Counted from the stretch's first letter, positions 7,091 to 44,787 are shown. The stretch is DNA of 64,000 nucleotides from Minisyncoccia bacterium (GCA_044356325.1 JBIKWJ010000002.1:94327-158326), one strand, 5' to 3'. Notes: generated from the sequence alone by a model not told the origin. Numbers and translations: made by a program.

Positions 7091-7720
7091 TTATCCCAAA
7101 TGGGCATGATCATTCCAGGTAATAATATTCCAGTCTTTTTGATCTTCATCAAATTGCATCCAAACTATTCCCGTATTACTCATAACTAAGTTATTAGTAA
7201 CCACTTTGGCTTCTTTTGCTGTCACATGAGACCCAAATAAACGATACCAGACCAAACAATGTAGGAAATTCTTATGGGTTACGATAATAATATTATCTTC
7301 TTCCCTAGACTCAATAAATTCAAAGGCTTTTTGAGCTCTTAATTTTAAATCTTCAAAATTTTCCTCATCAGAATGTCTATAATCTGATATTTCCCAATTA
7401 TCTGCAATTTCTTTATCTATAGCTTTTAATTCTTCCAGCTCTTTACTCTTTTCTTCTTGAATAGATGGTCTTTTTTTCTCAACAAATAATTCGTTTTCTT
7501 CAATAGGCAAATTAACAATTTTAGATATATATTTAGCAGTATCATAAGCCCTTGCATAGGGACTTGTTATAAGTAAATCCGCTGAGATATTATTAAACCG
7601 ACTAGCTATTTGCTGAGCTTGCTCATGACCTAATTCAGATAATGGGATACTAGCTGATTGATATATCCGCAATGCATTTCCCTCTGATTGTCCATGGCGC
7701 ACAAAATATATATTTTTCAT
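7091..7720 (-). CDS. Histidine phosphatase family protein (phosphoglycerate mutase-like)
   Basis: FVRHGQSEGN catalytic motif near the N-terminus. The track start (7822) runs through the tRNA trailer element and is trimmed to the ATG before MKNIYFVRHG. Confidence 0.75.
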   Translation of the reverse strand: MKNIYFVRHGQSEGNALRIYQSASIPLSELGHEQAQQIASRFNNISADLLITSPYARAYDTAKYISKIVNLPIEENELFVEKKRPSIQEEKSKELEELKAIDKEIADNWEISDYRHSDEENFEDLKLRAQKAFEFIESREEDNIIIVTHKNFLHCLVWYRLFGSHVTAKEAKVVTNNLVMSNTGIVWMQFDEDQKDWNIITWNDHAHLG

Positions 7721-7852
7721 ATGTGGATCTGACTGGGATACAAACCAGACTCTCGTCTTAGGAAACCCACGTTTTCCCAACCTTCCTAGACAGGAAACTG
7801 CCGTTTCCCGACCCCTTCCCAACTGGTTCGCTCCTATATTATTAATTTACTG
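7721..7852 (-). other. tRNA-associated trailer element: two GC hairpins plus a degenerate duplicate of the tRNA-Ala 3' end
   Basis: 7724-7757 tggatctgactgggatacaaaccagac resembles the tRNA 3' end tggacctgactgggatcgaaccagcc (about 80 percent). Between them lie ggaaacccacgttttcc and ggaaactgccgtttcccgacccc, the same element found 3' of tRNA-Arg. Confidence 0.6.
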
Positions 7853-7925
7853 TGGACCTGACTGGGATCGAACCAGCCACCTCCTCGGTGCAAGCGAGGC
7901 GCTCTACCAAATGAGCTACAGGCCC
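7853..7925 (-). tRNA. tRNA-Ala (anticodon TGC)
   Basis: Manual fold of GGGCCTGTAGCTCATTTGGTAGAGCGCCTCGCTTGCACCGAGGAGGTGGCTGGTTCGATCCCAGTCAGGTCCA. It has the G3:U70 pair, anticodon loop CTTGCAC and T-loop GGTTCGATCC. Confidence 0.85.
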
Positions 7926-8714: not shown

Positions 8715-8985
8715 ACTTTTGTCTACGATGTATCTCATCTTATTCAGAGATAGGAAGAATAATAGATTGGGAGTGATGTTTTCGTAGCGGAGGGTTTATC
8801 CCTCCACTTCGTAGAGGGGGGTAACTTAACTGTCCTCCTTTGGAGGAGGTGACCCCTCCCATACTTCAGTTTGGGAGGGGTCGGAGGTGGATAATAAGTA
8901 GTCTATATTTTAACTAAAAATTAAAACTCTATCCACCCTCCCCCTGCGGGTACTCCCTCCGAAGGGAGACAAGTATCTGTGGCTA
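8715..8985. repeat. Mosaic hairpin array (families L, K, D, J, E and F)
   Basis: Contains tgtctacgatgtatctcatcttattcaga, cgtagcggagggtttatccctccac, gtcctcctttggaggaggtg, cccatacttcagtttgggaggg, ggaggtggataa ... ctatccaccc and ctccctccgaagggagac. Confidence 0.8.
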
Positions 8986-10648: not shown

Positions 10649-10674
10649 AATTTTGTTTTGAATAATTGAGTGGG

Positions 10675-10944
10675 TGTCTCCGACCCCTTTCAGGTTCAAT
10701 CGTTTAATTCTTTGCTTTTAATTTCTCATCCGATATCTGATTGCATCCTATTCCGCAGTGTCTCCGATTGGGATCTCAGTCGCTATCGCTCTTTGGAAAC
10801 CCACGGTTTCCAACACTCGGAGTAAACTCCTCGCTGCCTTCCTTCACGGGGAACTCCCGTTCCCCGACCCCCTCCCAGTTCGATCCTTTAAGTATTTGCT
10901 TTTAATTAATATTTCGATTTCTGGTTTTTTACTCGTTTGCGGGG
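10675..10944 (-). other. tRNA-Arg trailer complex: exact 18-nt duplicate of the tRNA 3' end, an extra junction copy, and hairpin elements ggaaacccacggtttcc and ggggaactcccgttccccgacccc
   Basis: gtgtctccgattgggatc occurs at 10758-10775 and again as the true tRNA 3' end at 10945-10962. gggtgtctccga joined to cccctttcaggttcaatcg at 10672-10700 looks like a tRNA/element junction. About 100 bp upstream of the tRNA end is also duplicated. Confidence 0.65.
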
Positions 10945-11019
10945 GTGTCTCCGATTGGGATCGAACCAATAACCTACAGCTTAGAAGGCTGTTGCTCTAT
11001 CCGATTGAGCTACAGAGAC
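10945..11019 (-). tRNA. tRNA-Arg (anticodon TCT)
   Basis: GTCTCTGTAGCTCAATCGGATAGAGCAACAGCCTTCTAAGCTGTAGGTTATTGGTTCGATCCCAATCGGAGACA. Anticodon stem is ACAGC/GCTGT with loop CTTCTAA. Confidence 0.8.
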
Positions 11020-11084: not shown

Positions 11085-11215
11085 GTCGTAGGGGCGACCT
11101 TTCAGTCGCCAGTCCACACCCGTCACTTCGTGACACCCTCGCCAGCGAGGGACAGTTATTTTGTCCTCCCTTGGGGGAGGTGGCACGAAGTGACGGAGGA
11201 GGACATTCCTCACAA
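11085..11215. repeat. Mosaic hairpin array (families C, M, G and D)
   Basis: Contains gtaggggcgacctttcagtcgcc, gtcacttcgtgac, ccctcgccagcgaggg and gtcctcccttgggggaggtggcacgaagtgacggaggaggac. Confidence 0.8.
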
Positions 11216-20394: not shown

Positions 20395-20460
20395 CACGAT
20401 GGATTCCGGGGTTCTATTCAGTTGTAGTTACGTATATTTACCAGACCTCGCCAGGTCTAG
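20395..20460 (-). terminator. Tandem terminator hairpins (ccccggagatcacgatggattccgggg; agacctcgccaggtct)
   Basis: Two GC stems 3' of CDS 20465-21391 on the minus strand. Confidence 0.5.
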
Positions 20461-20464
20461 GAGC

Positions 20465-21391
20465 TCATGAGAGGAGATGTTTCTCCACCACGGCCACAAC
20501 CTCGTCGATAGTGAGCTTCGAGCTCACACCCTGTGGCGAGCCACCGATGGTCGGGGAACCACCCCAACCAGCCTCGAGAGTGTCGAGCTCCGCAAGCGCC
20601 GACTTGATGTCCGCGAACCCGCCAGAGAACTGGCAGATCGTAAACTTCTTGCAAGGCTCGCTCGGCCCCTGCCTGAAACTCGGGTTGAGCGCGACTACTA
20701 CTGGAGCAAGGGCATACCCAATGCTGAGAGCAGCACGATGCGTACTCTCTACCACCGCAATGAGGCCAAAGGAGACCATCTCGTACCTGATAGTTCCGCT
20801 TTCGAGAGCGGTGATCATGTCGATCCGCTCCCTCTCGACCTGTGTGCGATACTGTTCGGGTTCCTCACCCGCGAGCAGCCACAACTCCATCGTGGCAACA
20901 CGGTCAGCCAGCGGAACCCTGAAGTCCATGACTGCTGCCGCGATCGCCGCGAGATGGCGGGAAGACTCGGCCGTCGCCGTCTCCTCTATCCACGGGTTGT
21001 CCCGGGTCGGGAGGGGCTTCGGGCCAGAGTAGCCGCCACGCGCGAACTTGTCCGAGGTGGCGACCATCGTGACTCGCTCCATCGCGGGCTCGAGGCTTTC
21101 GCCATTCGCCCGGAGATTGAAGAGCGCCATCGCTCCGACCGCGTCGAGATCGGCGCGAACCGTCGCGAGAGTCGAGCCCTCGGGCGGAAGCTCCGCCGTC
21201 AGCGCGTCCTCGATGGCCGCACGATTGGCGTCACCGCCCGTGTGCTGGGGGTCGATGTTGAAGGTGCAACGCTCTGCGAGCGAGGGCACTGTCACTTCGA
21301 TCCCATAGACGGGGTTAGCGAACACCTTGTCGTTGGCCTCCGTGGCAGCCGAAATGTTGCGGGGGTCGAGAGTTGCGAAGCTGTAAACCAT
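20465..21391 (-). CDS. Cassette ORF, hypothetical protein (about 308 aa) of strikingly high GC (foreign-looking)
   Basis: Minus strand chosen because the conserved promoter at 21427-21457, GGAG 9 nt before ATG (MVYSFATLD) and the terminators at 20395-20460 are all minus-oriented. All six frames are open, as expected in high-GC DNA. Confidence 0.5.
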   Translation of the reverse strand: MVYSFATLDPRNISAATEANDKVFANPVYGIEVTVPSLAERCTFNIDPQHTGGDANRAAIEDALTAELPPEGSTLATVRADLDAVGAMALFNLRANGESLEPAMERVTMVATSDKFARGGYSGPKPLPTRDNPWIEETATAESSRHLAAIAAAVMDFRVPLADRVATMELWLLAGEEPEQYRTQVERERIDMITALESGTIRYEMVSFGLIAVVESTHRAALSIGYALAPVVVALNPSFRQGPSEPCKKFTICQFSGGFADIKSALAELDTLEAGWGGSPTIGGSPQGVSSKLTIDEVVAVVEKHLLS

Positions 21392-21426
21392 GATAATGAA
21401 CTCCAAATGATTGGATTACGAAAACA

Positions 21427-21457
21427 ACTATATCACATTTTCCTATTTTTGTCAATA
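21427..21457 (-). promoter_or_regulatory. Conserved cassette promoter (TTGACAAAAATAGGAAAATGTGATATAGT)
   Basis: TTGACA, 17 nt, TGnTATAGT. An AT-rich leader lies upstream. Confidence 0.6.
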
Positions 21458-21589
21458 GGTGTTGTGTGTATTGTGTTTTATTCACTTTAAACACACCTAT
21501 TTATTACCTTTATTGCTTGACTTTATTGATATTTTTATTTTGTTATAGTTTTTTGTTTTTATTGGAGTTTATATAGTGAGTGAGGTGAA

Positions 21590-22040
21590 TAATACTTGTA
21601 TTTCGTAGGGGCGACCTTTCAGTCGCCTATTTGTTCTAAAAATTCCCCTCTTGAGGGGTGCCCGTAGGGCGGGGTGGATAAAATATATTACTGAATTTTA
21701 CTCAAACACCATAGTATAGTTTTAATAACTATCCACCTCCGCCGTCGCAAATGGGATTTGCTCCTGTGAAACCTCACAGATTTGGCCAACCTTCCTCCAC
21801 GGGAAAACTCCCGTTTTCCCGACCCCTTTCCCGTGCCACCTCCTCCATTTATCTACCGTAGGTAGAAAGGAGGACAGTATATTTTTCCACCCCGTCCAGC
21901 GAAGCTGTACACCCCTCAAGAGGGGAATTTAGCTCAGTCCACCTCCGGTCACTCCTAGTGTGAACAAAATACCCCAATCCCTTCACAACAAAAACACGGG
22001 CAACTGCAAGATTGCCCCTACGGGTGTATTTGATAATTTT
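21590..22040. repeat. Large mosaic hairpin array (families C, A, E, tRNA-trailer-like, D/I and H)
   Basis: Contains cgtaggggcgacctttcagtcgcc, aaaaattcccctcttgaggggtgcccgtagggcggggtggat, ctatccacctccgcc, ccaaccttcctccacgggaaaactcccgttttcccgacccc (the same element as 3' of the tRNAs), gtgccacctcctccatttatctaccgtaggtagaaaggaggac and ccaccccgtccagcgaagctgt. Confidence 0.8.
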
Positions 22041-22049
22041 GTGAGAAAT

Positions 22050-22080
22050 GAAAAAACCCGTCTGGTGAGAGACGGGTTCA
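22050..22080 (-). terminator. Terminator (cccgtctctcaccagacggg followed by TTTTTT on the minus strand)
   Basis: Read directly from sequence. Confidence 0.55.
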
Positions 22081-22109
22081 ACTGATTACTCAACTGATTA
22101 CTCAATCAT

Positions 22110-22343
22110 TTAGATCGGTATTATTTGTACTGCAACTATTTTTCTAAACCTCCGAATAGGACGAACTACAGCTATTGTTGACAGATTTTGACATATAGTC
22201 TTTATAACTCTTTCAACTTCTTCAAAATCAACTTTATAATTTATAAATTGAATTACTTCAACCATTCCACTTATTATACAATTTCTTATTTGAGTCATTA
22301 AAGATATACAAGCAACATCTTGAACTGTTGAGGTGTAGGCCAT
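22110..22343 (-). CDS. Cassette ORF, small hypothetical protein (about 77 aa)
   Basis: TTGACC N17 TATATA promoter at 22372-22400 and terminator at 22050-22080. Start set to MAYTSTVQD. Confidence 0.35.
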   Translation of the reverse strand: MAYTSTVQDVACISLMTQIRNCIISGMVEVIQFINYKVDFEEVERVIKTICQNLSTIAVVRPIRRFRKIVAVQIIPI

Positions 22344-23536: not shown

Positions 23537-25366
23537 ATGGCATCCAAGCAAGCACAAACTAATCCAGAAATTGCTGATTTCCTCAAGGGCCAAAATACTC
23601 TTCGAGATCTTTTGGCACCCGCGAGTATTTTGGTAGATCCCAAATATATTCAAATTGGATCTCAATTTGCTCGTACTATTTTTGTGATGACATATCCTCG
23701 ATTTCTCGTCACAGGATGGTTTAGCCCACTTATTACTCTTGATTATGTCTTGGATATTTCTATGTTCCTCTATCCTATGGATAGTGGGGTTATATTAAAG
23801 AATCTGAGAACTCAAGTAACCCGTTTTCAAGCTCAAATTAGTATTGCACAAGAAAAAGGTCTCGTGCGAGATCCCATGGTGGAAACCGCTTATCAGGATG
23901 CGGAGAATCTCAGAGACCAATTACAACAGGGTACTGAGAGATTTTTCCGCTTTGGGCTCTATATTACGGTTTATGCAGATAGTCTTCCTCAATTAGAGAA
24001 GAATATTTCTCAGATAGATAGTATGCTTCAAACCAAAATGGTATATTCTAAACCTTGTTTATTCCAAACTGAACAGGGTTTTCAATCGACTATTCCTCTT
24101 CTCAAAGATGATTTAGCCATTGCTAATAATCTTAATACTTCACCCCTATCTACTACATTTCCTTTTATTTCAGCTAGTATTTCCTCTAATAAAGGGATTT
24201 TGTATGGAATTAATCGCCATAATAATAGCCTTATTCTCTTTGATAGATTTTCTATGGAAAATGCCAATGAGGTTATTTTTGCCAAATCAGGAGCGGGGAA
24301 AAGTTATCTTGCTAAGCTTGAAATATTGAGGCATCTGATGCTCAATATTGATGTTCTGGTTATTGATCCTGAAAATGAATATTCTTATCTTACTGAGGCA
24401 GTTGGTGGAACATTTATCAAAATATCTCTCAATTCTAATCAACATATTAATCCTTTTGATTTACCAAATCCTCGTGATGATGAGAATCCTGCCGATTTAC
24501 TCAAATCTAATATTGCGGACTTATTAAGTATGCTCAAATTAATGCTTGAGGGGAGAAATGATGAGGACAAATTCCACGCTGAAGAAGAGGCTATACTAGA
24601 CCGAGCTCTTTATGAGACATATGCCAGCAAAGATATTAGCATTGAATCTCCTAATTATGAAAATAAAGAAATTCCAACTCTTTCTGATTTAGAAAACATT
24701 CTCAATAATATGGAGGGGGGAGAAAGCCTTGCTATTCGTCTTTCCAAATATACTACTGGGAGTTTTAGCGGGTTTATCAATGAGCCTACCAATATTAATT
24801 TTGCCAATCAGCTCGTAGTATTCAATACTCGAGATATGGAGGACGAATTACAGCCATTAGCTATGTTTATCGTAACTCAATATATTTGGAAAGAGGTAAG
24901 AAGAACTCTCAAAAAGCGTATTCTAGTAGTAGATGAAGCTTGGGTGATGATGAAGGATAAATCAGTAGCTTCATTCCTATTCTCACTCGCCAAAAGAGCT
25001 CGTAAATATTATCTTGGACTTACCACTATTACTCAGGATATTGCTGATTTTCTCGCCTCAGAATACGGAAAAGCAATTTTGACCAACTCTTCTATACAAA
25101 TTCTCCTCAAACAATCTCCTGCCTCTATAGATATTATTAAAGATACTTTTTATCTTACTGAAGAGGAAAAATTCCTTCTTCTCGAGTCAGATGTGGGAGA
25201 AGGAATATTTTTTGCGGGACTAAAACATGCTGCTATCAAAGTAGTAGCCTCATATGGAGAGGATCAGATAATCACCTCAGATCCGGAACAATTACTCAGA
25301 ATCCAGGCTGCCAAAGCTCAAATCACTGAGGAAGGAAATTCCGACCCATTCTCATTAAATTTATAA
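23537..25366 (+). CDS. virB4: VirB4/TrbE/CagE-family type IV secretion ATPase, C-terminal ATPase portion
   Basis: Walker A AKSGAGKS and Walker B VVDEAW, with the surrounding VirB4-type sequence. 609 aa. Confidence 0.8.
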   Translation: MASKQAQTNPEIADFLKGQNTLRDLLAPASILVDPKYIQIGSQFARTIFVMTYPRFLVTGWFSPLITLDYVLDISMFLYPMDSGVILKNLRTQVTRFQAQISIAQEKGLVRDPMVETAYQDAENLRDQLQQGTERFFRFGLYITVYADSLPQLEKNISQIDSMLQTKMVYSKPCLFQTEQGFQSTIPLLKDDLAIANNLNTSPLSTTFPFISASISSNKGILYGINRHNNSLILFDRFSMENANEVIFAKSGAGKSYLAKLEILRHLMLNIDVLVIDPENEYSYLTEAVGGTFIKISLNSNQHINPFDLPNPRDDENPADLLKSNIADLLSMLKLMLEGRNDEDKFHAEEEAILDRALYETYASKDISIESPNYENKEIPTLSDLENILNNMEGGESLAIRLSKYTTGSFSGFINEPTNINFANQLVVFNTRDMEDELQPLAMFIVTQYIWKEVRRTLKKRILVVDEAWVMMKDKSVASFLFSLAKRARKYYLGLTTITQDIADFLASEYGKAILTNSSIQILLKQSPASIDIIKDTFYLTEEEKFLLLESDVGEGIFFAGLKHAAIKVVASYGEDQIITSDPEQLLRIQAAKAQITEEGNSDPFSLNL

Positions 25367-32142: not shown

Positions 32143-32964
32143 TTAGTTCTTATCAATGAGCTTTTTTGCTGATATGGAACTAACAACCTTTTTTCCCGTT
32201 TTCTCCTCTATTTCCCTTCGAGTATTGCCCGCAATAGTACCACCTTGATTTGCTATGACTTTATTCTGGTCAAAGTTCTTAGGCTTTTTCTCTTTACTAA
32301 TTTCGGTAGTTGTTGCTTCTGCAAGCATATTAAGAACTAGCTCTAAGTTAGTCATATTATCTCGTAAATTCTCTTTTTTTAGATTTTTGTATTGTTTATA
32401 TGCTTTGACCGATAAACCGCTCCAAGCTCTTGTAATTTCATCCGTTAATATAGCATATTCTTGTCCCTTTTTTACTCCTCTTATATCCCACTCATCAGTA
32501 AGTTCTTTTCTTACCTCTATACTTTTAAGTCTTTGATTTACCCATTCTTTAGAATATCCCTTTTTGAGATATATCTCCATCAATCTATCTATTCCAAGCT
32601 CTGGATCTTCAATTTCATCGAGACGCTCCCGCGCAACCTGTGCTATCCATATTTTAAAAGGTTCAGCTTTAGGAGAAGGGATAGATTGAATAAGTCTAAA
32701 TAATTGCTCCGTATCAGCAACATCAGTAAGTCTTAATTTTCCATCCGAAGCTTTTATTTTCAACTGTCCGATATTTTCGGACAGTTCACTTCCTTCATTA
32801 CCAAGTTTTGTTTTGAGATCATTCCAATACTTCCGAGGTCTATCTGTTTCTGCTAGGATAGCAATCACATCAATAATAGAAAAATACCATTTTTCTTGAT
32901 CAACATCCCAAATACTACGAACCTGTTTTTTCTCAAATAATTTGATTGCTATATCTTTTTTCAT
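32143..32964 (-). CDS. dinD: DinD-like protein with N-terminal Bro-N domain (DNA-damage-inducible protein D / phage antirepressor family)
   Basis: N-terminal LFEKKQVRSIWDVDQEKWYFSIIDVIAILAETDRPRKYWNDL matches the Bro-N pattern. Length and organisation match E. coli DinD (274 aa). Confidence 0.6.
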   Translation of the reverse strand: MKKDIAIKLFEKKQVRSIWDVDQEKWYFSIIDVIAILAETDRPRKYWNDLKTKLGNEGSELSENIGQLKIKASDGKLRLTDVADTEQLFRLIQSIPSPKAEPFKIWIAQVARERLDEIEDPELGIDRLMEIYLKKGYSKEWVNQRLKSIEVRKELTDEWDIRGVKKGQEYAILTDEITRAWSGLSVKAYKQYKNLKKENLRDNMTNLELVLNMLAEATTTEISKEKKPKNFDQNKVIANQGGTIAGNTRREIEEKTGKKVVSSISAKKLIDKN

Positions 32965-38842: not shown

Positions 38843-40285
38843 ATGGACGAGAAACAAAGAGTTTGGAACTCCGTATTAGGTGAGATAGAGCTCAATATTA
38901 GTAAACCTCAGTTTAATACCTGGATCAAAAATACTTATCCTATAAGTATGGATGAGAAAGAAATTGTAATTTGCGTGCCAAGCGCTTTTACACGGGATTG
39001 GCTTGAGAATAAATTTAATGTTACTATTCTAAACTCTATTCAAAAGATTACTGGCTCTATAAAGCGGGTAAAATATGTCGTTCAGAATACGCAAAAACAA
39101 TCCCCAAAAGCTATTCAATCTGTTATTAATCTCAAAAATAAAGAATTAAAGGAGAAAAAGTCTAAAATTGAGGAGAAAGAGAAAACCCCATCTACGAATC
39201 CCCATTATCAATATGCTGAGCCTACTATTATCCCAGACAGACCAAGTGGAACGGCTCTCTTAAAAGATAATTATACCTTTGAGAATTTTATTGTGGGCTC
39301 CTCCAATGAACTTGCTCATGCTGCGGCTCAATCAGTTGCTAATGAACCTGGAACTCGATATAATCCTTTATTCATTTATGGTGGTGTGGGCCTTGGTAAA
39401 ACGCATCTTATTCAAGCTATTGCTAATAGTCTCAATAAAAAGAATAAGAATATTCTGTATGTTACCTCGGATGTATTCATCTCAGATTTGATGAATTCTC
39501 TCAAAAATGGGCGTATGGAAGATTTTAAAGCTCGGCATAGAGCTGTTGATCTCTTGATTATTGATGACATTCAATTTATCGGGGGTAAAGAAGCTACTCA
39601 ATATGAGGTTTTCAATACCTTTAATGATTTATATGCTCATAATAAGCAAATTGTGTTTACGAGTGATAGACCACCGAGTGCAATAAAGACCTTAAATGAT
39701 AGATTAAAATCTCGATTCGAAGGGGGTATGATTGTGGATGTTGCTATTCCAGAATTTGAAACTCGTGTGGCTATTCTCAAAAGTAAATGTATTCAAAAGA
39801 ATTTTCATCTTGATGATGCTATTATTTATGTTATTGCGGAGCGTATTCGAAGCAATGTGAGAGAATTAGAGGGAGCTCTCAATAAAATTATTGGGCGAGT
39901 ACAGCTGCTCGGTACTAAAGTTACTCCTGAATTAGTAGATAAACTGATTGAGGGAGGACAAATTCATTCTCAGCGTATTGTCAATAGTGATATGATTCTG
40001 GATATAGTAGCTAATCATTTTCATATTAACAAAGCTGATATATTATCTAAAAGCCGTAAAAAAGATATTGCGATACCGCGTCAAATTGCAATGTATCTCA
40101 TTCGAGAAGAATTAAAACTCACTTTCCCAAATATTGGAGAATTATTAGGGGGAAAAGATCATAGTACAGTTATGCATGCTTGGAATAAGGTAAAAAAGGA
40201 TATTGTAACTAATTATAGCCTTGAGCAAGATATTACTCTTATTAAGAATAAACTGTATAATGAAGAAAACCCTGTAAATTCTTAG
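38843..40285 (+). CDS. dnaA: Chromosomal replication initiator DnaA
   Basis: AAA+ Walker A GGVGLGKTHL, Walker B LLIIDDIQF, sensor motifs, and the C-terminal DNA-binding domain. Confidence 0.9.
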   Translation: MDEKQRVWNSVLGEIELNISKPQFNTWIKNTYPISMDEKEIVICVPSAFTRDWLENKFNVTILNSIQKITGSIKRVKYVVQNTQKQSPKAIQSVINLKNKELKEKKSKIEEKEKTPSTNPHYQYAEPTIIPDRPSGTALLKDNYTFENFIVGSSNELAHAAAQSVANEPGTRYNPLFIYGGVGLGKTHLIQAIANSLNKKNKNILYVTSDVFISDLMNSLKNGRMEDFKARHRAVDLLIIDDIQFIGGKEATQYEVFNTFNDLYAHNKQIVFTSDRPPSAIKTLNDRLKSRFEGGMIVDVAIPEFETRVAILKSKCIQKNFHLDDAIIYVIAERIRSNVRELEGALNKIIGRVQLLGTKVTPELVDKLIEGGQIHSQRIVNSDMILDIVANHFHINKADILSKSRKKDIAIPRQIAMYLIREELKLTFPNIGELLGGKDHSTVMHAWNKVKKDIVTNYSLEQDITLIKNKLYNEENPVNS

Positions 40286-40346
40286 AAATTAGTAGTGTTA
40301 TACTTGGATAAAACTACTAATTGACTTAATATAGTAAACAAAAAAA

Positions 40347-40371
40347 CACTCCAACCACGATGGAAGGAGTG
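40347..40371 (-). terminator. Cassette terminator (cactccaaccacgatggaaggagtg followed by a T-run on the minus strand)
   Basis: Duplicate at 41109-41133. Confidence 0.6.
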
Positions 40372-40412
40372 CGGGGGAGAGTTTAAAATATGGATTTAAA
40401 TGAATGAATTGT

Positions 40413-40628
40413 TTATACCTCAACAATTTTTGCATTTATTACTCTCATTATAGACTCGCCTCGTTGTTTTACCAAAACAGATGACCCTGTGCTTAAATCT
40501 ATCCTGGTCCTGTTGTTCGAATCGGCGACATATGATGCTGAAACAGCCACTATCAGATCTGGTCGAATGTAGACAGGCCCGTCATGGCTGGTCAGTGAAA
40601 GAAATTCAGTTTCGGTTGATTCGTCCAT
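40413..40628 (-). CDS. Cassette ORF, hypothetical protein (71 aa), GC-enriched
   Basis: Track start is the TTG of the -35 hexamer; trimmed to the ATG (MDESTETEF). Bounded by conserved promoter and terminator. Confidence 0.4.
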   Translation of the reverse strand: MDESTETEFLSLTSHDGPVYIRPDLIVAVSASYVADSNNRTRIDLSTGSSVLVKQRGESIMRVINAKIVEV

Positions 40629-40653
40629 GGAAAAATCGGCGATGTTTACAAAA

Positions 40654-40688
40654 CTATATATACCACATTTTCCTAATTTTGTCAATAG
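40654..40688 (-). promoter_or_regulatory. Conserved cassette promoter (TTGACAAAATTAGGAAAATGTGGTATATA)
   Basis: Start of an about 420-bp block (promoter, AT leader, hairpin array) repeated at 41296. Confidence 0.6.
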
Positions 40689-40799
40689 TTGTTGTTATTT
40701 ATTTTTAACATTTACTATTGTCTATAGCATTATTAATTAATTTATTATTATATTTTGTTATGATTTTATATTTTTTATAGTTATGACATTATGTTTTTG

Positions 40800-41075
40800 T
40801 CCCCCTTTGCCTGCCTGCGGTAGGCAGGGAGGGGGAAGCATGAAAGGCGGGGGTGGATAAAAGTAAGTCCATATTCTAAATTTAATATTATTAGAAAATA
40901 TAAATAACTTTTATCTCTATCCACCTCCGGCACTTCGTGCCACCTCCTCCTAAGGAGGACAGAAGCTCAAATTACATACACACCCGCCGACTCTAAGAAT
41001 TTACCAATAATACTATAGTAAAATCCACCCACCCCGTCAGGCAACCCTGCCGATAGTACTTTCATATATAGAGAT
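40800..41075. repeat. Hairpin array, copy 1 of tandem block
   Basis: gtccccctttgcctgcctgcggtaggcagggagggggaagc, ggcgggggtggataaa..70 bp AT..ctctatccacctccggcacttcgtgccacctcctcctaaggaggac, ccaccccgtcaggcaaccctgcc. A near-identical array lies at 41440-41640. Confidence 0.8.
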
Positions 41076-41108
41076 ATTATATAGTTAATTGATATAGTAA
41101 ACTAAAAG

Positions 41109-41133
41109 CACTCCAACCAAGATGGAAGGAGTG
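41109..41133 (-). terminator. Cassette terminator, copy 2
   Basis: cactccaaccaagatggaaggagtg. Duplicate of 40347-40371. Confidence 0.6.
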
Positions 41134-41153
41134 CGGGGGAGTGTTTGTGAAAC

Positions 41154-41273
41154 TCAATTCACGACTTTGTCTGCCTTGTCTTGCCTGAAAAACAAGATAT
41201 GAATCAGAGCAAGGGGGGTTGCAATGATCATAGCAACTGTGACCATAACTCTGGTCGAAGAAGGAAGTTTCAT
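41154..41273 (-). CDS. Hok-like mini-ORF (39 aa: MKLPSSTRVMVTVAMIIATPLALIHILFFRQDKADKVVN), candidate type I toxin-like membrane peptide
   Basis: Own translation. The ATG lies 17 nt after the conserved -10 and the stop precedes the terminator. The alternative track frame reads through the terminator and was rejected. Resembles the Hok N-terminus MKLP..S followed by a TM segment. Confidence 0.3.
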   Translation of the reverse strand: MKLPSSTRVMVTVAMIIATPLALIHILFFRQDKADKVVN

Positions 41274-41295
41274 GACAGTAAAATGAACATACATT

Positions 41296-41328
41296 ATATA
41301 TACCACATTTATCCGTTTTTGTCAATAG
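41296..41328 (-). promoter_or_regulatory. Conserved cassette promoter, copy 2 of tandem block
   Basis: TTGACAAAAACGGATAAATGTGGTATATA. Confidence 0.6.
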
Positions 41329-41439
41329 TTATTGTTATTTATTTTTAACATTTACTATTGTCTATAGCATTATTAATTAATTTATTATTATATTTTGTTA
41401 TGATTTTGTATTTTTTATATAGGTGTGACATTATGTTTT

Positions 41440-41810
41440 TTTGTCCCCCTTTGCCTGCCTGCGGTAGGCAGGGAGGGGGAAGCATGAAAGGCGGGGGTGG
41501 ATAAAAGTAAGTCCATATTCTAAAATTTAATATTATTAGAAAATATAAATAACTTTTATCTCTATCCACCTCCGGCACTTCGTGCCACCTCCTCCTAAGG
41601 AGGACAGAAGCTCAAATGACATACACACCCGCCGACTCTAAGAATTTACCAATCATACCATAGTAAAAGCGGGCGACTGAAAGGTCGCCCCTACGAGTAC
41701 AGAAATCTCCACCCCGTCAGGCAAGCCTACCACCCCCTCCCAATATCTCTTCTCAAGAGCTAATGGGAGGGACTTAAAGCCCTCAATTTATCGACCGTAG
41801 GTGGAGAGGG
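41440..41810. repeat. Hairpin array, copy 2, plus additional modules
   Basis: Same modules as 40800-41075. It continues with gcgggcgactgaaaggtcgcccctacg, ccaccccgtcaggcaagcctacc and ccctcaatttatcgaccgtaggtggagagggg. Confidence 0.8.
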
Positions 41811-41819
41811 GAATTAAAT

Positions 41820-42150
41820 ACACAATTCCCTACCTATTGTGTATAACCTGTGTATAACTTATACAAAATCCCTAAATTTCTGTGAATAATATTGTGTATA
41901 AATAGGACTTAATCCACAGAGTATTTTTAACCCTTACTTTATCCCCAAAGTTTCACAAGACTTATCCCAAATGATATCCCCACTTGACATACACTATTTA
42001 TGCGGGTAAAAACCAGTTTTCAGCTTTTCCACACAGACTACTATCTACTATTATACTTTATATAAATAAAGGACAAAAAGACAAATAACCTAGAAAAAAG
42101 AAATTATTCAAGGTATAATACATATATAGAAATAGAATAAGATAGAGAAG
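41820..42150. promoter_or_regulatory. oriC-like region between the cassettes and dnaN: clustered DnaA-box-like 9-mers plus a very AT-rich stretch
   Basis: Three copies of tgtgtataa (one mismatch from TGTGGATAA), ttaatccaca, and ttatcccca-type boxes. About 150 bp of AT-rich sequence lies before dnaN. Confidence 0.45.
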
Positions 42151-42152
42151 AT

Positions 42153-43262
42153 ATGAAATTTACCTGTTTGCAAGAAAATCTTTTAAAGGGATTAAGTATA
42201 GCTCGCCAGAGTTCTTCTCGGGCTACAACATTACCTGTTTTACAAACCTTTTTATTACAAGGAGATAAGGGATCTCTTACTATTAGCTCCACCAATTTAG
42301 AAATTGGAATACGAGTACATATTAGAGGTAAAGAAGAAGCTGAAGGTGCTATTTGTATTCCTCAAGATACATTGCTTGCCTATATTCGAAATTTGCCTCA
42401 AGATAAATTAGATTTAACAGTAGTAGATGATAAACTCACTATAGAACAAGGAAAGGATATTACAGCTGAATTCAAAGGTATTATTGCAGATGAATTTCCA
42501 CAACTTCCTCAAATAGAAGCAGATAAGCAATTGGTAGTAGGAAGTACGGAACTCAAACAAGCTCTCAAAACAGTATATGGGGCTTTGCCTAAAAATGATT
42601 TCCGCCCAGAAATATCGGGAGTATATATTGCAAAAAAAGATCAGCAATTAATTTTTGTGGGAACTGATGGATTTCGCCTTAGTGAAAAAAGAATTACTCT
42701 TTCAAGTCCCGCTGAAGAGAATTTCTCTCTGATTATTCCAAGTAAAACAGTAGCAGAAATTATTCGAGTATTAGATTCTCTAGAAGAAATAGAAGTTACC
42801 CTTCAATTTGGAGCTTCTCAAATACATATTATTGCCGATACCGTTGAGATTATATCAAAATTAATTGAGGGAAATTTTCCTCAATATGAGGGACTTATTC
42901 CTCAAACATTTCAAACTGTTGTGGATGTGGACAGTCAAGAATTAGTACAGGCTATAAAATTAGCTTCGGTATTTTCTCAGAATACGGTTCATGATGTCAA
43001 ATTAACCATACAAGATGATAGTACTTTGAGTATTAGTTCTTCTGATTCTCAAGTTGGAGCTAATACCACCAAATTACCGGTGCATAGTACGGGAGAGACG
43101 GGACTTGCCGTTGCCTTTAATTATAATTATCTTTTAGATGGGATACAATTATTCGGTGATAAGCCCATACAATTCAATGTTAATGATACTGATTCTCCTG
43201 TTATTATCAAAAGTCCAGATATTCCTGATTTCTTTTATCTTATAATGCCAATTCGAGACTAA
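42153..43262 (+). CDS. dnaN: DNA polymerase III beta sliding clamp
   Basis: 369 aa with a three-domain beta-clamp. Conserved position next to dnaA. Confidence 0.85.
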   Translation: MKFTCLQENLLKGLSIARQSSSRATTLPVLQTFLLQGDKGSLTISSTNLEIGIRVHIRGKEEAEGAICIPQDTLLAYIRNLPQDKLDLTVVDDKLTIEQGKDITAEFKGIIADEFPQLPQIEADKQLVVGSTELKQALKTVYGALPKNDFRPEISGVYIAKKDQQLIFVGTDGFRLSEKRITLSSPAEENFSLIIPSKTVAEIIRVLDSLEEIEVTLQFGASQIHIIADTVEIISKLIEGNFPQYEGLIPQTFQTVVDVDSQELVQAIKLASVFSQNTVHDVKLTIQDDSTLSISSSDSQVGANTTKLPVHSTGETGLAVAFNYNYLLDGIQLFGDKPIQFNVNDTDSPVIIKSPDIPDFFYLIMPIRD

Positions 43263-43266
43263 ATAT

Positions 43267-44787
43267 ATGCTATCCCGAGTACAATCAGCTGCAACTCTAG
43301 GATTAAATGGGCAAAGAATAGAGATTGAAGTTGATATGACTCAGGGTTTACCTGGTATTACTATTGTGGGATTACCCGATACTGCTGTCAATGAGTCAAA
43401 AGAGCGTATTCGCCTAGGGCTTAAAAATAGTGGAATTATTCTTCCCCAAAAACGATTTGTCCTAAATTTAGCTCCAGCCGAGGTTAAAAAAATTGGAACA
43501 GCTTATGATTTACCTATGGCGGTTGCTATTCTTAAAGCTTTAGAATTAATTCAATTTCCAGAACAGGATTATATTATTCTTGGGGAAATGGGATTAGATG
43601 GTTCAATACGGGGGATACAGGGTATATTACCTATTGCGATATATGCCAAACAACAACATATACCATTTATTATTGTTCCTGCTGATAATGCGAAAGAAGC
43701 CTCCCTTGTAGAAGGTATTACTATTTTAGCAATTAATCATATACAAGAATTAATTGATCATTTTGATATTAAAGTAAATACCCAAATTCAAGCTACTCCT
43801 ACCTATAATTTTGTTCCTAAGCCACATATTTCAGATATAGATATGTCTTATATACGGGGACAAAAGCTTGCCAAGAGAGCCTTAGAAATTGCGGCCGCGG
43901 GAGCTCATAATATATTAATGACAGGTCCTCCAGGAGCTGGAAAAACATTATTATCTCGTACTATACCAACTATATTACCGATAATGGATCGTGAGGAAGT
44001 ATTAGAAGTTTCACAATTATATAGTATTGCAGGAAATCTTAATTCAGATAATCCACTCATAATTAGTAGGCCATTTCGAGCACCACATCATACCGCATCG
44101 TCCATTTCTTTAATCGGAGGCGGGAGTTTTCCTAAACCAGGCGAAATTAGTCTTGCTCATCGTGGAGTGCTCTATATGGATGAATTTCCGGAGTTTCCCC
44201 GATTAGTATTAGAAAGTTTACGACAACCATTAGAAGATAGAATTGTAACAATATCCAGGGCACAAGGATCTCTCACTTTTCCTGCCGACTTTATGCTGAT
44301 TGCCAGCCAAAACCCTTGCCCTTGTGGCTATCTTACCGATAATGATAGAGAATGTATTTGTTCTCAAGCTCAAATTGTACGGTATCAGCAAAAAATATCT
44401 GGTCCATTACTCGACAGAATAGATATGATTATTCAGGTAGAAAAAGTCAAAACAGAAGAGTTAATTAAGCCAACCGAAGTATTAGAAGAATCATCCGAAT
44501 CAATTCGTAATAGAGTAGAAAAAGCTCGCGCAATACAAAGACAACGATTTCAAGATATGGGAATTAAAACCAATAGTGAGATGAATATAAAACAAATTCA
44601 AGAAATTTGTATATTAGATAAAGCTTCACAACATCTTCTTACACAAGCGGTTAGTAAAATGAATTTATCCGCTCGAGCCTATAATAGAATTCTCAAATTA
44701 TCCCGTACTATTGCCGATATCGCTAACTCCGATAATATTCAAATCACTCATATTGCAGAAGCGCTACAATATCGTGAAAAAGTATAA
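43267..44787 (+). CDS. comM: Mg-chelatase-like AAA+ protein YifB/ComM
   Basis: N-terminal Lon-like domain, then AAA+ Walker A GPPGAGKT, plus the Cys-rich C4 motif CPCGY..C.C, typical of ComM. Confidence 0.9.
   Translation: MLSRVQSAATLGLNGQRIEIEVDMTQGLPGITIVGLPDTAVNESKERIRLGLKNSGIILPQKRFVLNLAPAEVKKIGTAYDLPMAVAILKALELIQFPEQDYIILGEMGLDGSIRGIQGILPIAIYAKQQHIPFIIVPADNAKEASLVEGITILAINHIQELIDHFDIKVNTQIQATPTYNFVPKPHISDIDMSYIRGQKLAKRALEIAAAGAHNILMTGPPGAGKTLLSRTIPTILPIMDREEVLEVSQLYSIAGNLNSDNPLIISRPFRAPHHTASSISLIGGGSFPKPGEISLAHRGVLYMDEFPEFPRLVLESLRQPLEDRIVTISRAQGSLTFPADFMLIASQNPCPCGYLTDNDRECICSQAQIVRYQQKISGPLLDRIDMIIQVEKVKTEELIKPTEVLEESSESIRNRVEKARAIQRQRFQDMGIKTNSEMNIKQIQEICILDKASQHLLTQAVSKMNLSARAYNRILKLSRTIADIANSDNIQITHIAEALQYREKV

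Follow-up and report, generated by a model that had tools for sequence, protein, structure and literature searches.

The approximately 130 nt found 3' of a tRNA-Ala gene (positions 7722-7850) in the window, i.e. the entire 64,000-nt stretch of DNA analysed here, are a genuine insertion accompanied by a duplication of its target. We consider it probable, at roughly 60%, that this insertion is one copy of a family of non-autonomous insertion elements that target the 3' ends of tRNA genes and carry a structured-RNA core. The members of this family are small (~110-250 nt), protein-less insertion elements of Patescibacteria.

The insertion behind tRNA-Ala

The window is a low-GC (~36%) segment of a bacterial chromosome, which encodes housekeeping functions (BipA, a short IF-2, UvrD, DnaA, DnaN and Pol III alpha) and whose close relatives are Paceibacteria/Parcubacteria MAGs. 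It probably spans the replication origin, since dnaA and dnaN (38843-44787) lie near the minimum of the cumulative GC skew (~34-36 kb); a VirB4/TraG-like ATPase (23537-25366) and a Bro-N domain protein (32143-32964) are encoded nearby. Starting from the tRNA, the locus comprises the following features:

7852/7853-7925, minus strand: intact tRNA-Ala(UGC), the target gene (ARAGORN; Rfam tRNA, 64.3 bits)
7851-7868, minus strand: proximal copy of the duplicated target, from the 3' part of the T loop to the discriminator plus CA
7835-7850, minus strand: AT-rich 16-nt spacer from tRNA-Ala to the 5' arm, poorly conserved between orthologous copies
7823-7834, minus strand: 5' arm GGAGCGAACCAG, the reverse complement of the T-stem 5' strand and T loop of the tRNA
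7754-7821, minus strand: conserved core, made of UGGGAAGGGGU, P2, UCUAGGAAGGU, P4 (7761-7779) and UAAGACG (covariance model R1, 71 bits, E=7e-17)
7740-7753, minus strand: linker and 3' inner arm CUGGUUUGU, degenerate and T-stem/T-loop-like, which pairs with the 5' arm
7722-7739, minus strand: distal copy of the duplicated target (17/18), which stops 1 nt before the ATG (7720)
7091-7720, minus strand: His_Phos_1 (histidine-phosphatase) gene (Pfam, E=1.6e-32)

The first-pass annotation had described a tRNA-Ala followed by a non-coding element with two hairpins, and both are real: ggaaactgccgtttcc and ggaaacccacgttttcc are the two hairpins of the element read on the opposite strand, and ~110 nt separate the tRNA from the 18-nt repeat. 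The proximal copy ATCCCAGTCAGgTCCACA (7851-7868) and the distal copy ATCCCAGTCAGaTCCACA (7722-7739) are identical at 17 of 18 positions, the exact repeat beginning with the final bases of the T loop, continuing through the 3' strands of both T stem and acceptor, and taking in the discriminator plus a further 2 nt. The longer copy of the tRNA end that had been proposed over 7724-7757, at about 80% identity, holds with a gap only: ungapped, 23 of 34 positions agree, whereas ~77% do (counted by hand) once one gap is allowed. Within the element, helix P2 joins 7803-7810 to 7791-7798 around a GGCA loop. The 5' arm is complementary to the T arm of the tRNA at 11 of 12 positions (inverted repeat I6, 12 nt, 92%) and pairs in the fold with 7741-7748, pairing with the tRNA itself being a possible alternative. 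Taken as a single sequence, the fold of this copy is unexceptional and uninformative (z = -1.6).

Upstream of the exact 18-mer, the distal copy is degenerate in the way that the T arm of a decaying tandem tRNA duplicate would be. Yet there is practically no chance that the locus is such a pseudogene or a fortuitous similarity: no remnant of a D arm, anticodon arm or 5' acceptor strand separates the copies, ARAGORN and Rfam both find no tRNA there, the intervening sequence is the conserved core of the family, and the same structure recurs behind tRNA-Arg and at many other loci, a family-wide recurrence that refutes a local accident. Moreover, the duplicated 18-mer, allowing up to 3 mismatches, occurs at these two sites only in the 64-kb window against a shuffle expectation of 0.11 per window, so that the chance similarity raised at the outset as a possible refutation fails. 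So does the other escape then envisaged, a conserved trailer behind every tRNA, as tRNA-Asp, tRNA-His and tRNA-Cys in the window lack the element.

Empty sites, for which a search had been recommended, exist. Among homologues of the phosphatase gene, five (L121-L125; 83, 75, 66, 66 and 62% identity) keep the order tRNA-Ala then phosphatase, with the tRNA-Ala placed directly before the ATG, 1-2 nt away, without the element and with the 18-mer in single copy; in a sixth (L126, 62%), tRNA-Ala no longer adjoins the gene. The distal copy in the window precedes the native flank found at these empty sites. The filled site is orthologous in L011 and L065, both of which have a conserved core and an intact distal copy but a diverged spacer. 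Since three closer relatives have the Ala copy and five syntenic ones do not, it entered a recent ancestor of the host organism.

In the empty-site relatives (L121-L125, ~1997-2003), the phosphatase ATG thus lies 1-2 nt past the discriminator region of tRNA-Ala, which leaves no space for a Shine-Dalgarno sequence and suggests that the mRNA is leaderless and set free when the 3' end of the tRNA is processed. After insertion, the distal copy of the tRNA end preserves this spacing to the ATG (window 7718-7722). A short metagenome contig, L004 (JGI contig Ga0453732_0206244), starts inside the Ala element, ~100 nt upstream of the gene.

Further copies and their turnover

Covariance model R1 detects exactly three significant copies in the window, at 71, 60.9 and 54.3 bits. 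Besides the Ala copy, the relevant features are:

10946-11019, minus strand: tRNA-Arg(UCU), the second target (ARAGORN; Rfam)
10758-10944, minus strand: second family member, behind tRNA-Arg, with orthologous copies in L011, L065 and L089
10672-10757, minus strand: decayed second tandem unit at the same locus, with spacer, 5' arm and GGGGUCGG fused to a piece of tRNA end
21760-21832, minus strand: third core copy, of subfamily B (R1, 60.9 bits), with no adjoining tRNA and located inside a multi-hairpin repeat

In the Arg copy, a spacer of 57 nt, which is conserved, precedes the 5' arm GGAUCGAAC (10878-10886). The core starts from 10877 and includes an extra hairpin P3 (10814-10836) and helix P4 (10793-10813), and an exact 18-nt duplicate of the tRNA-Arg end (10758-10775 = 10945-10962) completes the copy. 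In the decayed unit, most of the core has been deleted at a TCGG microhomology, and GGGGUCGG directly adjoins the final 10 nt of the tRNA-Arg end (10674-10683).

Elsewhere in the family, too, units are found in tandem or in truncated form. Two elements of different subtype, without and with P3, stand in tandem behind one tRNA-Thr in L031 (3040-3300), and two neighbouring tRNA-Gln genes in L030 (880-1330, minus strand) have an element each. The tRNA-Asp gene is followed by a divergent copy in L125, whereas L121 and L122 retain a remnant of 16 nt and the window has none. Element copies are thus gained, decayed and lost over time. A breakage hotspot after GGGGUC(GG), suggested by three truncated units, was not retained, a systematic search having returned too few cases.

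The third copy belongs to a distinct setting. A GC-rich multi-hairpin repeat, composed of ...CTCCCTTCGGAGGGAGTACCCGCAGGGGGAGGGTGGATAG, an AT-rich stretch and TATCCACCTCC... with tetraloop-like loops (TTCG, GCAA), is found in the window at 8860-8965 (minus strand) and ~21680-21760, as well as in L082, L121 and L125. In related MAGs, subfamily B, consisting of the core and two extra hairpins, replaces the GCA/GCAA loop of the CCCG..GGG hairpin of this repeat, and window positions 8929-8960 are an unfilled version of that site. At least 8 similar subfamily B copies are present in MAG JBIKVS, all at the identical place in the larger repeat, whereas tRNA-linked copies number ~2-4 per genome where more than one is seen. 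The surrounding 20400-22300 region is GC-rich (0.495 versus ~0.36 elsewhere) and flanked by short repeats such as GGCGACTGAAAGGTCGCCCCTACGA (also found near 11090-11115) and CCCCTCAAGAGGGG. It contains long overlapping ORFs (20465-21406, minus strand, and 20477-21490, plus strand) with no Pfam match, and Rfam returned no match over the region, which is probably non-coding repeat-rich DNA or a novel RNA.

A conserved core spread among Patescibacteria

Genomes (one per species) and metagenomes were scanned with the strict pattern GGGGTCGGG..CGGNAG..AGGAAGG. The genome scan yielded at least 116 stretches, nearly all from Patescibacteria MAGs, and the metagenome scan at least 120; flanks were analysed in at least 177 usable pattern matches from both sources, again nearly all Patescibacteria. 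Pattern scans of viral contigs returned no match, and phage carriage was rejected on that ground. R1 recognized 109 matches in 100 sources, including copies missed by the strict pattern.

Every copy contains a core of ~70 nt with the layout GGGAAGGGGUC-hairpin-GUGGAGGAAGG-(optional hairpin)-hairpin-GGAG. The 5' half of the consensus consists of UGGGAAGGGGU, P2 (CGGGAAAC-GGGA-GUUUCCCG) and UGGAGGAAGG, and the 3' half of the optional variable hairpin P3, P4 (UGGGAAA(A)CC-GUG/GAGA-GGUUUCCCA) and GGAG. The joining strands, which include GGGAAGGGG / GGAGGAAGG, are invariant and purine-rich, and the core folds as a compact three-way junction. In the 109-sequence alignment, P2 and P4 pair in 95.7% of cells versus 80.8% in shuffles, and 14 of their 17 pairs show changes on both sides; the observed values were reached in none of 500 shuffles, and controls with slid partners paired at 26-73%. 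As the alignment was fitted to the model, these covariation figures lean toward structure. One-sided changes in P2 are all G-U, which indicates that wobble is tolerated on the tRNA-sense strand only. The core is maintained as a single-stranded structure, most simply RNA, on the tRNA-sense strand. In four loci (L023, L048, L051 and L116), the P4 loop holds a nested insert, formed of GCGACC, ~30-40 nt and AAGTACTCTTGTGGTG, with two such inserts in L116; it occurs in several unrelated copies and looks like another hairpin-loop-seeking module.

The identity of this core was sought among known RNAs. At gathering score, Rfam 15 gave no match on the element in the window or in any of 31 loci; with the threshold relaxed to E<=10, nothing credible appeared for the Ala copy or the canonical L103 copy; the Rfam matches obtained (tRNA, tmRNA, rRNA and group I introns) all lie away from the element. 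No description of the element was found in the literature either, and the family is apparently undescribed, lying outside Rfam 15 and being absent from the literature searched. [quoted passage not shown] SRP RNA, RNase P and tmRNA were likewise discarded: the short word resemblances GGUC..GG, GGAAGG and GAGGAA came without a model match, and the multicopy, tRNA-specific arms oppose these identities.

The location 3' of tRNAs, the compact three-way junction with its invariant joining strands and the abutment of the distal copy on the start codon of the next gene would suit a candidate self-cleaving or tRNA-trailer-processing ribozyme that frees the tRNA or the downstream mRNA, by analogy with phage theta ribozymes. 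We regard this possibility as very unlikely. Theta/HDV-like ribozymes abut the tRNA 3' end and adopt a nested double-pseudoknot, whereas the core has a three-way junction and lies 22-107 nt from the tRNA end, frequently past the terminator. Moreover, no ribozyme model of Rfam 15 matches, including those of HDV type (Ala and L103 copies, E<=10), and the empty-site relatives express the same tRNA-gene pair without the element.

Another reading holds that the core is a domesticated or primary small RNA that is capped by a tRNA minihelix, matured by RNase P, RNase Z and CCA addition, and binds a cellular partner; the tRNA-derived stem would then be a processing handle and mobility incidental. Several observations agree with it. 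At several loci (L044, L073, L103 and L046), the 5' arm corresponds to the 5' strands of acceptor and T stem combined and, with the distal copy, forms an acceptor/T minihelix of 12 bp that stops at the discriminator. The core is extremely conserved across Patescibacteria with RNA-type covariation, orthologous copies are conserved above the neutral level, and most genomes have a single strict-pattern match among the matches listed, which would also fit a domesticated single-copy RNA gene. Nevertheless, this explanation remains improbable, given that presence and absence vary among close relatives, that decayed and truncated copies occur, that the host tRNA changes from genome to genome, that the outer stem decays without RNA-level compensation and amounts to only ~5 bp in the Arg lineage, and that non-tRNA targets exist.

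Target copies and the mechanism of insertion

All 97 of the upstream tRNAs within 125 nt (among the matches listed) lie on the strand of the element, and at least 17 tRNA isotypes are targeted. In pattern matches with usable flanks, the 3' end of the element is a copy of the local tRNA's own end: a repeat match of at least 13 of 16 positions at the tRNA end occurs in at least 39 genome-scan loci, and duplications in many more. In most loci, the copied stretch begins at tRNA position 58-61, but in long class II tRNAs it begins at 70-75 (mostly 72-75). The 3' strands of T stem and acceptor are always part of it, as is the discriminator; its length ranges from 13 to 128 nt, and identity runs into the trailer at many loci.

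A reverse-complement copy of the target (8-28 nt) lies upstream of the core, which together with the direct copy downstream gives the order direct, inverted, core, direct. This 5' arm matches each tRNA's own T-loop variant; its mean complementarity score is 12.4 against its own tRNA and 6.9 against other isotypes, and the local tRNA is its best partner in 61 of 87 loci among the matches listed. Since tRNA end and arm are often split only by the terminator hairpin of the tRNA or a short loop rich in GCGAAGC-like sequence, they form one long palindrome, and a miRNA-like Rfam match is spurious, corresponding to the palindrome hairpin. Mismatches in the outer arms comprise 17 G-U and 14 A-C; lacking a G-U excess, the long stem looks like a decaying DNA inverted repeat rather than a selected RNA helix, and RNA-level selection on it was discarded as unsupported. 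The repeat would have been created by the insertion, whereas selection acts on the core. GCGAAGC, an unusually stable DNA/RNA mini-hairpin, recurs (with variants GCGNAGC) in many loci, as a 9-nt bulge AGCGAAGCG in the 3' arm and within the short loop between the tRNA end and the 5' arm. A subfamily with GUGAGAU opposite AUCGAAC would form tandem G-A pairs.

The right-hand junction is precise and located in the T loop; the left junction is variable, with microhomology in L014, and all the sequence between the two is duplicated. A few copies reside at non-tRNA targets, namely protein-gene ends. In L010 (2830-3040), the 5' end of an oppositely oriented glycosyltransferase gene is exactly duplicated over 42 nt, and the arm complements 6 nt beyond the duplicated block. 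L024 (985-1215) is similar, at a glycosyltransferase gene start (motif ITKSNWGGA); there, the upstream copy supplies another N-terminus (MPSLPRKKLLYVITK...) than the displaced one (MKILYVITK...). In L066 and L075, the 3' end of a protein gene bears duplications of 76 and 92 nt.

No protein could be associated with the family. Clustering of the ORFs within 2.5 kb of the ~110 genome-scan copies listed gave no enriched partner, only housekeeping families, and a recurring glycosyltransferase family proved to be an insertion target and not a partner. No reverse transcriptase was found among the ORFs within 2.5 kb of the matches listed, no ORF lies inside any element copy, and comparison of 30 window ORFs with Pfam revealed no integrase, recombinase, transposase or reverse transcriptase.

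Tyrosine-integrase islands and prophages integrate at tRNA and tmRNA genes, and at many of these sites the att repeats start in the T loop. The element resembles such islands in having an intact restored tRNA, inserted DNA, a direct repeat from the T loop and empty sites in relatives. It differs in size (110-250 nt rather than kilobases), in lacking integrase and cargo, in its structured-RNA core, in its reverse-complement copy of the target, in its 13-128-nt repeat and in the many tRNA types used by one family. The interpretation initially put forward, a scar of integrase-mediated insertion, stands in part: an insertion with target duplication starting in the T loop is present, but no integrase is linked to it and att sites leave the reverse-complement target copy unexplained. 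Its extension to a larger, integrase-bearing element finds no support. The ~110 nt are a conserved, covarying unit behind at least 17 tRNA types and not the decayed leftover of a larger island, and a larger parent element or integrase with the same ends was not found, no copy containing an ORF and no protein being linked.

With island decay dropped, a version persists in which a miniature integrative element with an attP-like tRNA 3' end is moved in trans by a tyrosine or serine integrase, which may be encoded elsewhere in the genome and would recombine in the T loop, the element's own copy restoring the tRNA while the original end is pushed downstream. Such an element would account for a duplication running from the T loop to the tRNA end or past it, as at many tRNA att sites, for the native empty-site flank after the distal copy, and for the tandem units. 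It would also explain why spacers frequently include a terminator of their own, which in L044 and L059 resembles the one following the distal copy but differs from it by divergence, as expected if it were element-borne, and why the distal copy reads CCTTG where the tRNA reads CCAAG in a tRNA-Gln lineage, left of the identical block, like an attP arm beside a crossover. We nonetheless judge it unlikely. No integrase was detected at the ~110 genome-scan loci listed or among the 30 window ORFs; identical or near-identical flank duplications of 37-128 nt (L010, L065, L066, L069, L075 and L088) look made on the spot and not brought in; the reverse-complement arm, which matches the local target even 6 nt outside the duplicate, has no role in att recombination; arm and duplication lengths differ between loci; and each of at least 17 tRNA types, as well as the protein-gene targets, would call for its own recombinase specificity.

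Under the favoured reading of a non-autonomous, tRNA-end-targeting element, propagation could involve the following steps. First, the element would be transcribed by read-through from the tRNA promoter. A sigma-70-like promoter is predicted before tRNA-Arg, and promoter prediction gave none between tRNA-Ala or tRNA-Arg and its element, which makes read-through the simplest source of the RNA. Second, the core, as RNA or as a folded single strand, would be needed for propagation by a trans-acting factor or by its own RNA chemistry. Finally, new copies would arise via copy-in, which rebuilds the 3' end of the target and so leaves the tRNA intact. The precise end would be set by pairing of the T-loop-like inner arms with the target, and the opposite end would lack such precision, as happens in target-primed or fold-back/template-switch synthesis.

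Variation in duplication and arm length, together with the L014 microhomology, is reminiscent of target-primed or fold-back/template-switch synthesis. A repeat that starts in the T loop and terminators brought by the element look more like Campbell-type integration via an attP-like copy. The filled and empty flanks at the Ala locus fit both types, target-site duplication and Campbell-type, and the pattern of duplication agrees just as well with a circle that carries a target copy and integrates in the Campbell manner.

Several known systems share part of this anatomy. Like MITEs and other small repeats (Correia/NEMIS, BOX, RUP, REP/BIME and Rickettsia palindromic elements), the element is small, non-coding and non-autonomous, has stable stem-loops, can be present in several copies per genome and is gained or lost from strain to strain. 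However, MITEs have terminal inverted repeats of their own and a fixed short duplication, whereas here the arms are copies of the local target, matching the local tRNA and not one another across loci, and the duplications are long and variable (13-128 nt). Unlike MITEs, the element is also site-specific for tRNA 3' ends and inserted in a single orientation.

SINE-like and R2-like retroelements offer another parallel, with one precise and one imprecise junction, variation in duplication length and in 5' extent, a transcript probably shared with a strongly expressed host RNA gene and a structured RNA carrying target-matching sequence. They differ from the element in that the latter has no reverse transcriptase partner found near its copies, no A-rich or simple-repeat tail and no internal promoter, and its inverted target copy has no counterpart in them. 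Group II introns have been reported absent from Patescibacteria (PMC13011429).

Guide RNAs, such as the reRNA/omegaRNA of TnpB and the bridge RNA of IS110, similarly join a structured scaffold to a stretch identical or complementary to the flank, and the 3' stretch of the TnpB reRNA is simply flanking DNA, as in the element. In contrast to these systems, no TnpB, IscB or IS110 gene is adjacent, the 8-28-nt arms pair mutually and the target is duplicated; Rfam models of the omegaRNA/HEARO type gave no match. Altogether, the element works like small non-autonomous and tRNA-targeting integrative elements, and lacks the defining features of MITEs and att scars.

A bolder proposal, which we advance tentatively and at well below even odds, is that the core represents the active component of a new class of mobile elements, in which a protein-less RNA or DNA hairpin has its target-matching arms rebuilt at each insertion. 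The rebuilding could proceed by fold-back at the tRNA terminator with template switching, or through an RNA-guided host enzyme, and rebuilt arms would automatically retarget the element to conserved gene ends, e.g. tRNA 3' ends, without an encoded transposase. There is a substantial chance, albeit a minority one, that the mechanism falls into a new category altogether.

The genomes of Patescibacteria are tiny and can accommodate little selfish DNA. The element is widespread among them and yet unannotated, and its anatomy, which combines an RNA core, no protein, an undamaged tRNA and target copies in both directions, misfits the standard transposase, integrase and retroelement schemes. The tRNA-end repeats and long palindromes may break assemblies and could pass for att sites of islands; the elements are also presence/absence markers for strain tracking in metagenome time series. 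If the arms are indeed rebuilt at each insertion, the family would constitute a self-retargeting insertion system, which would bear on the safe havens of mobile elements and could interest designers of programmable insertion tools.
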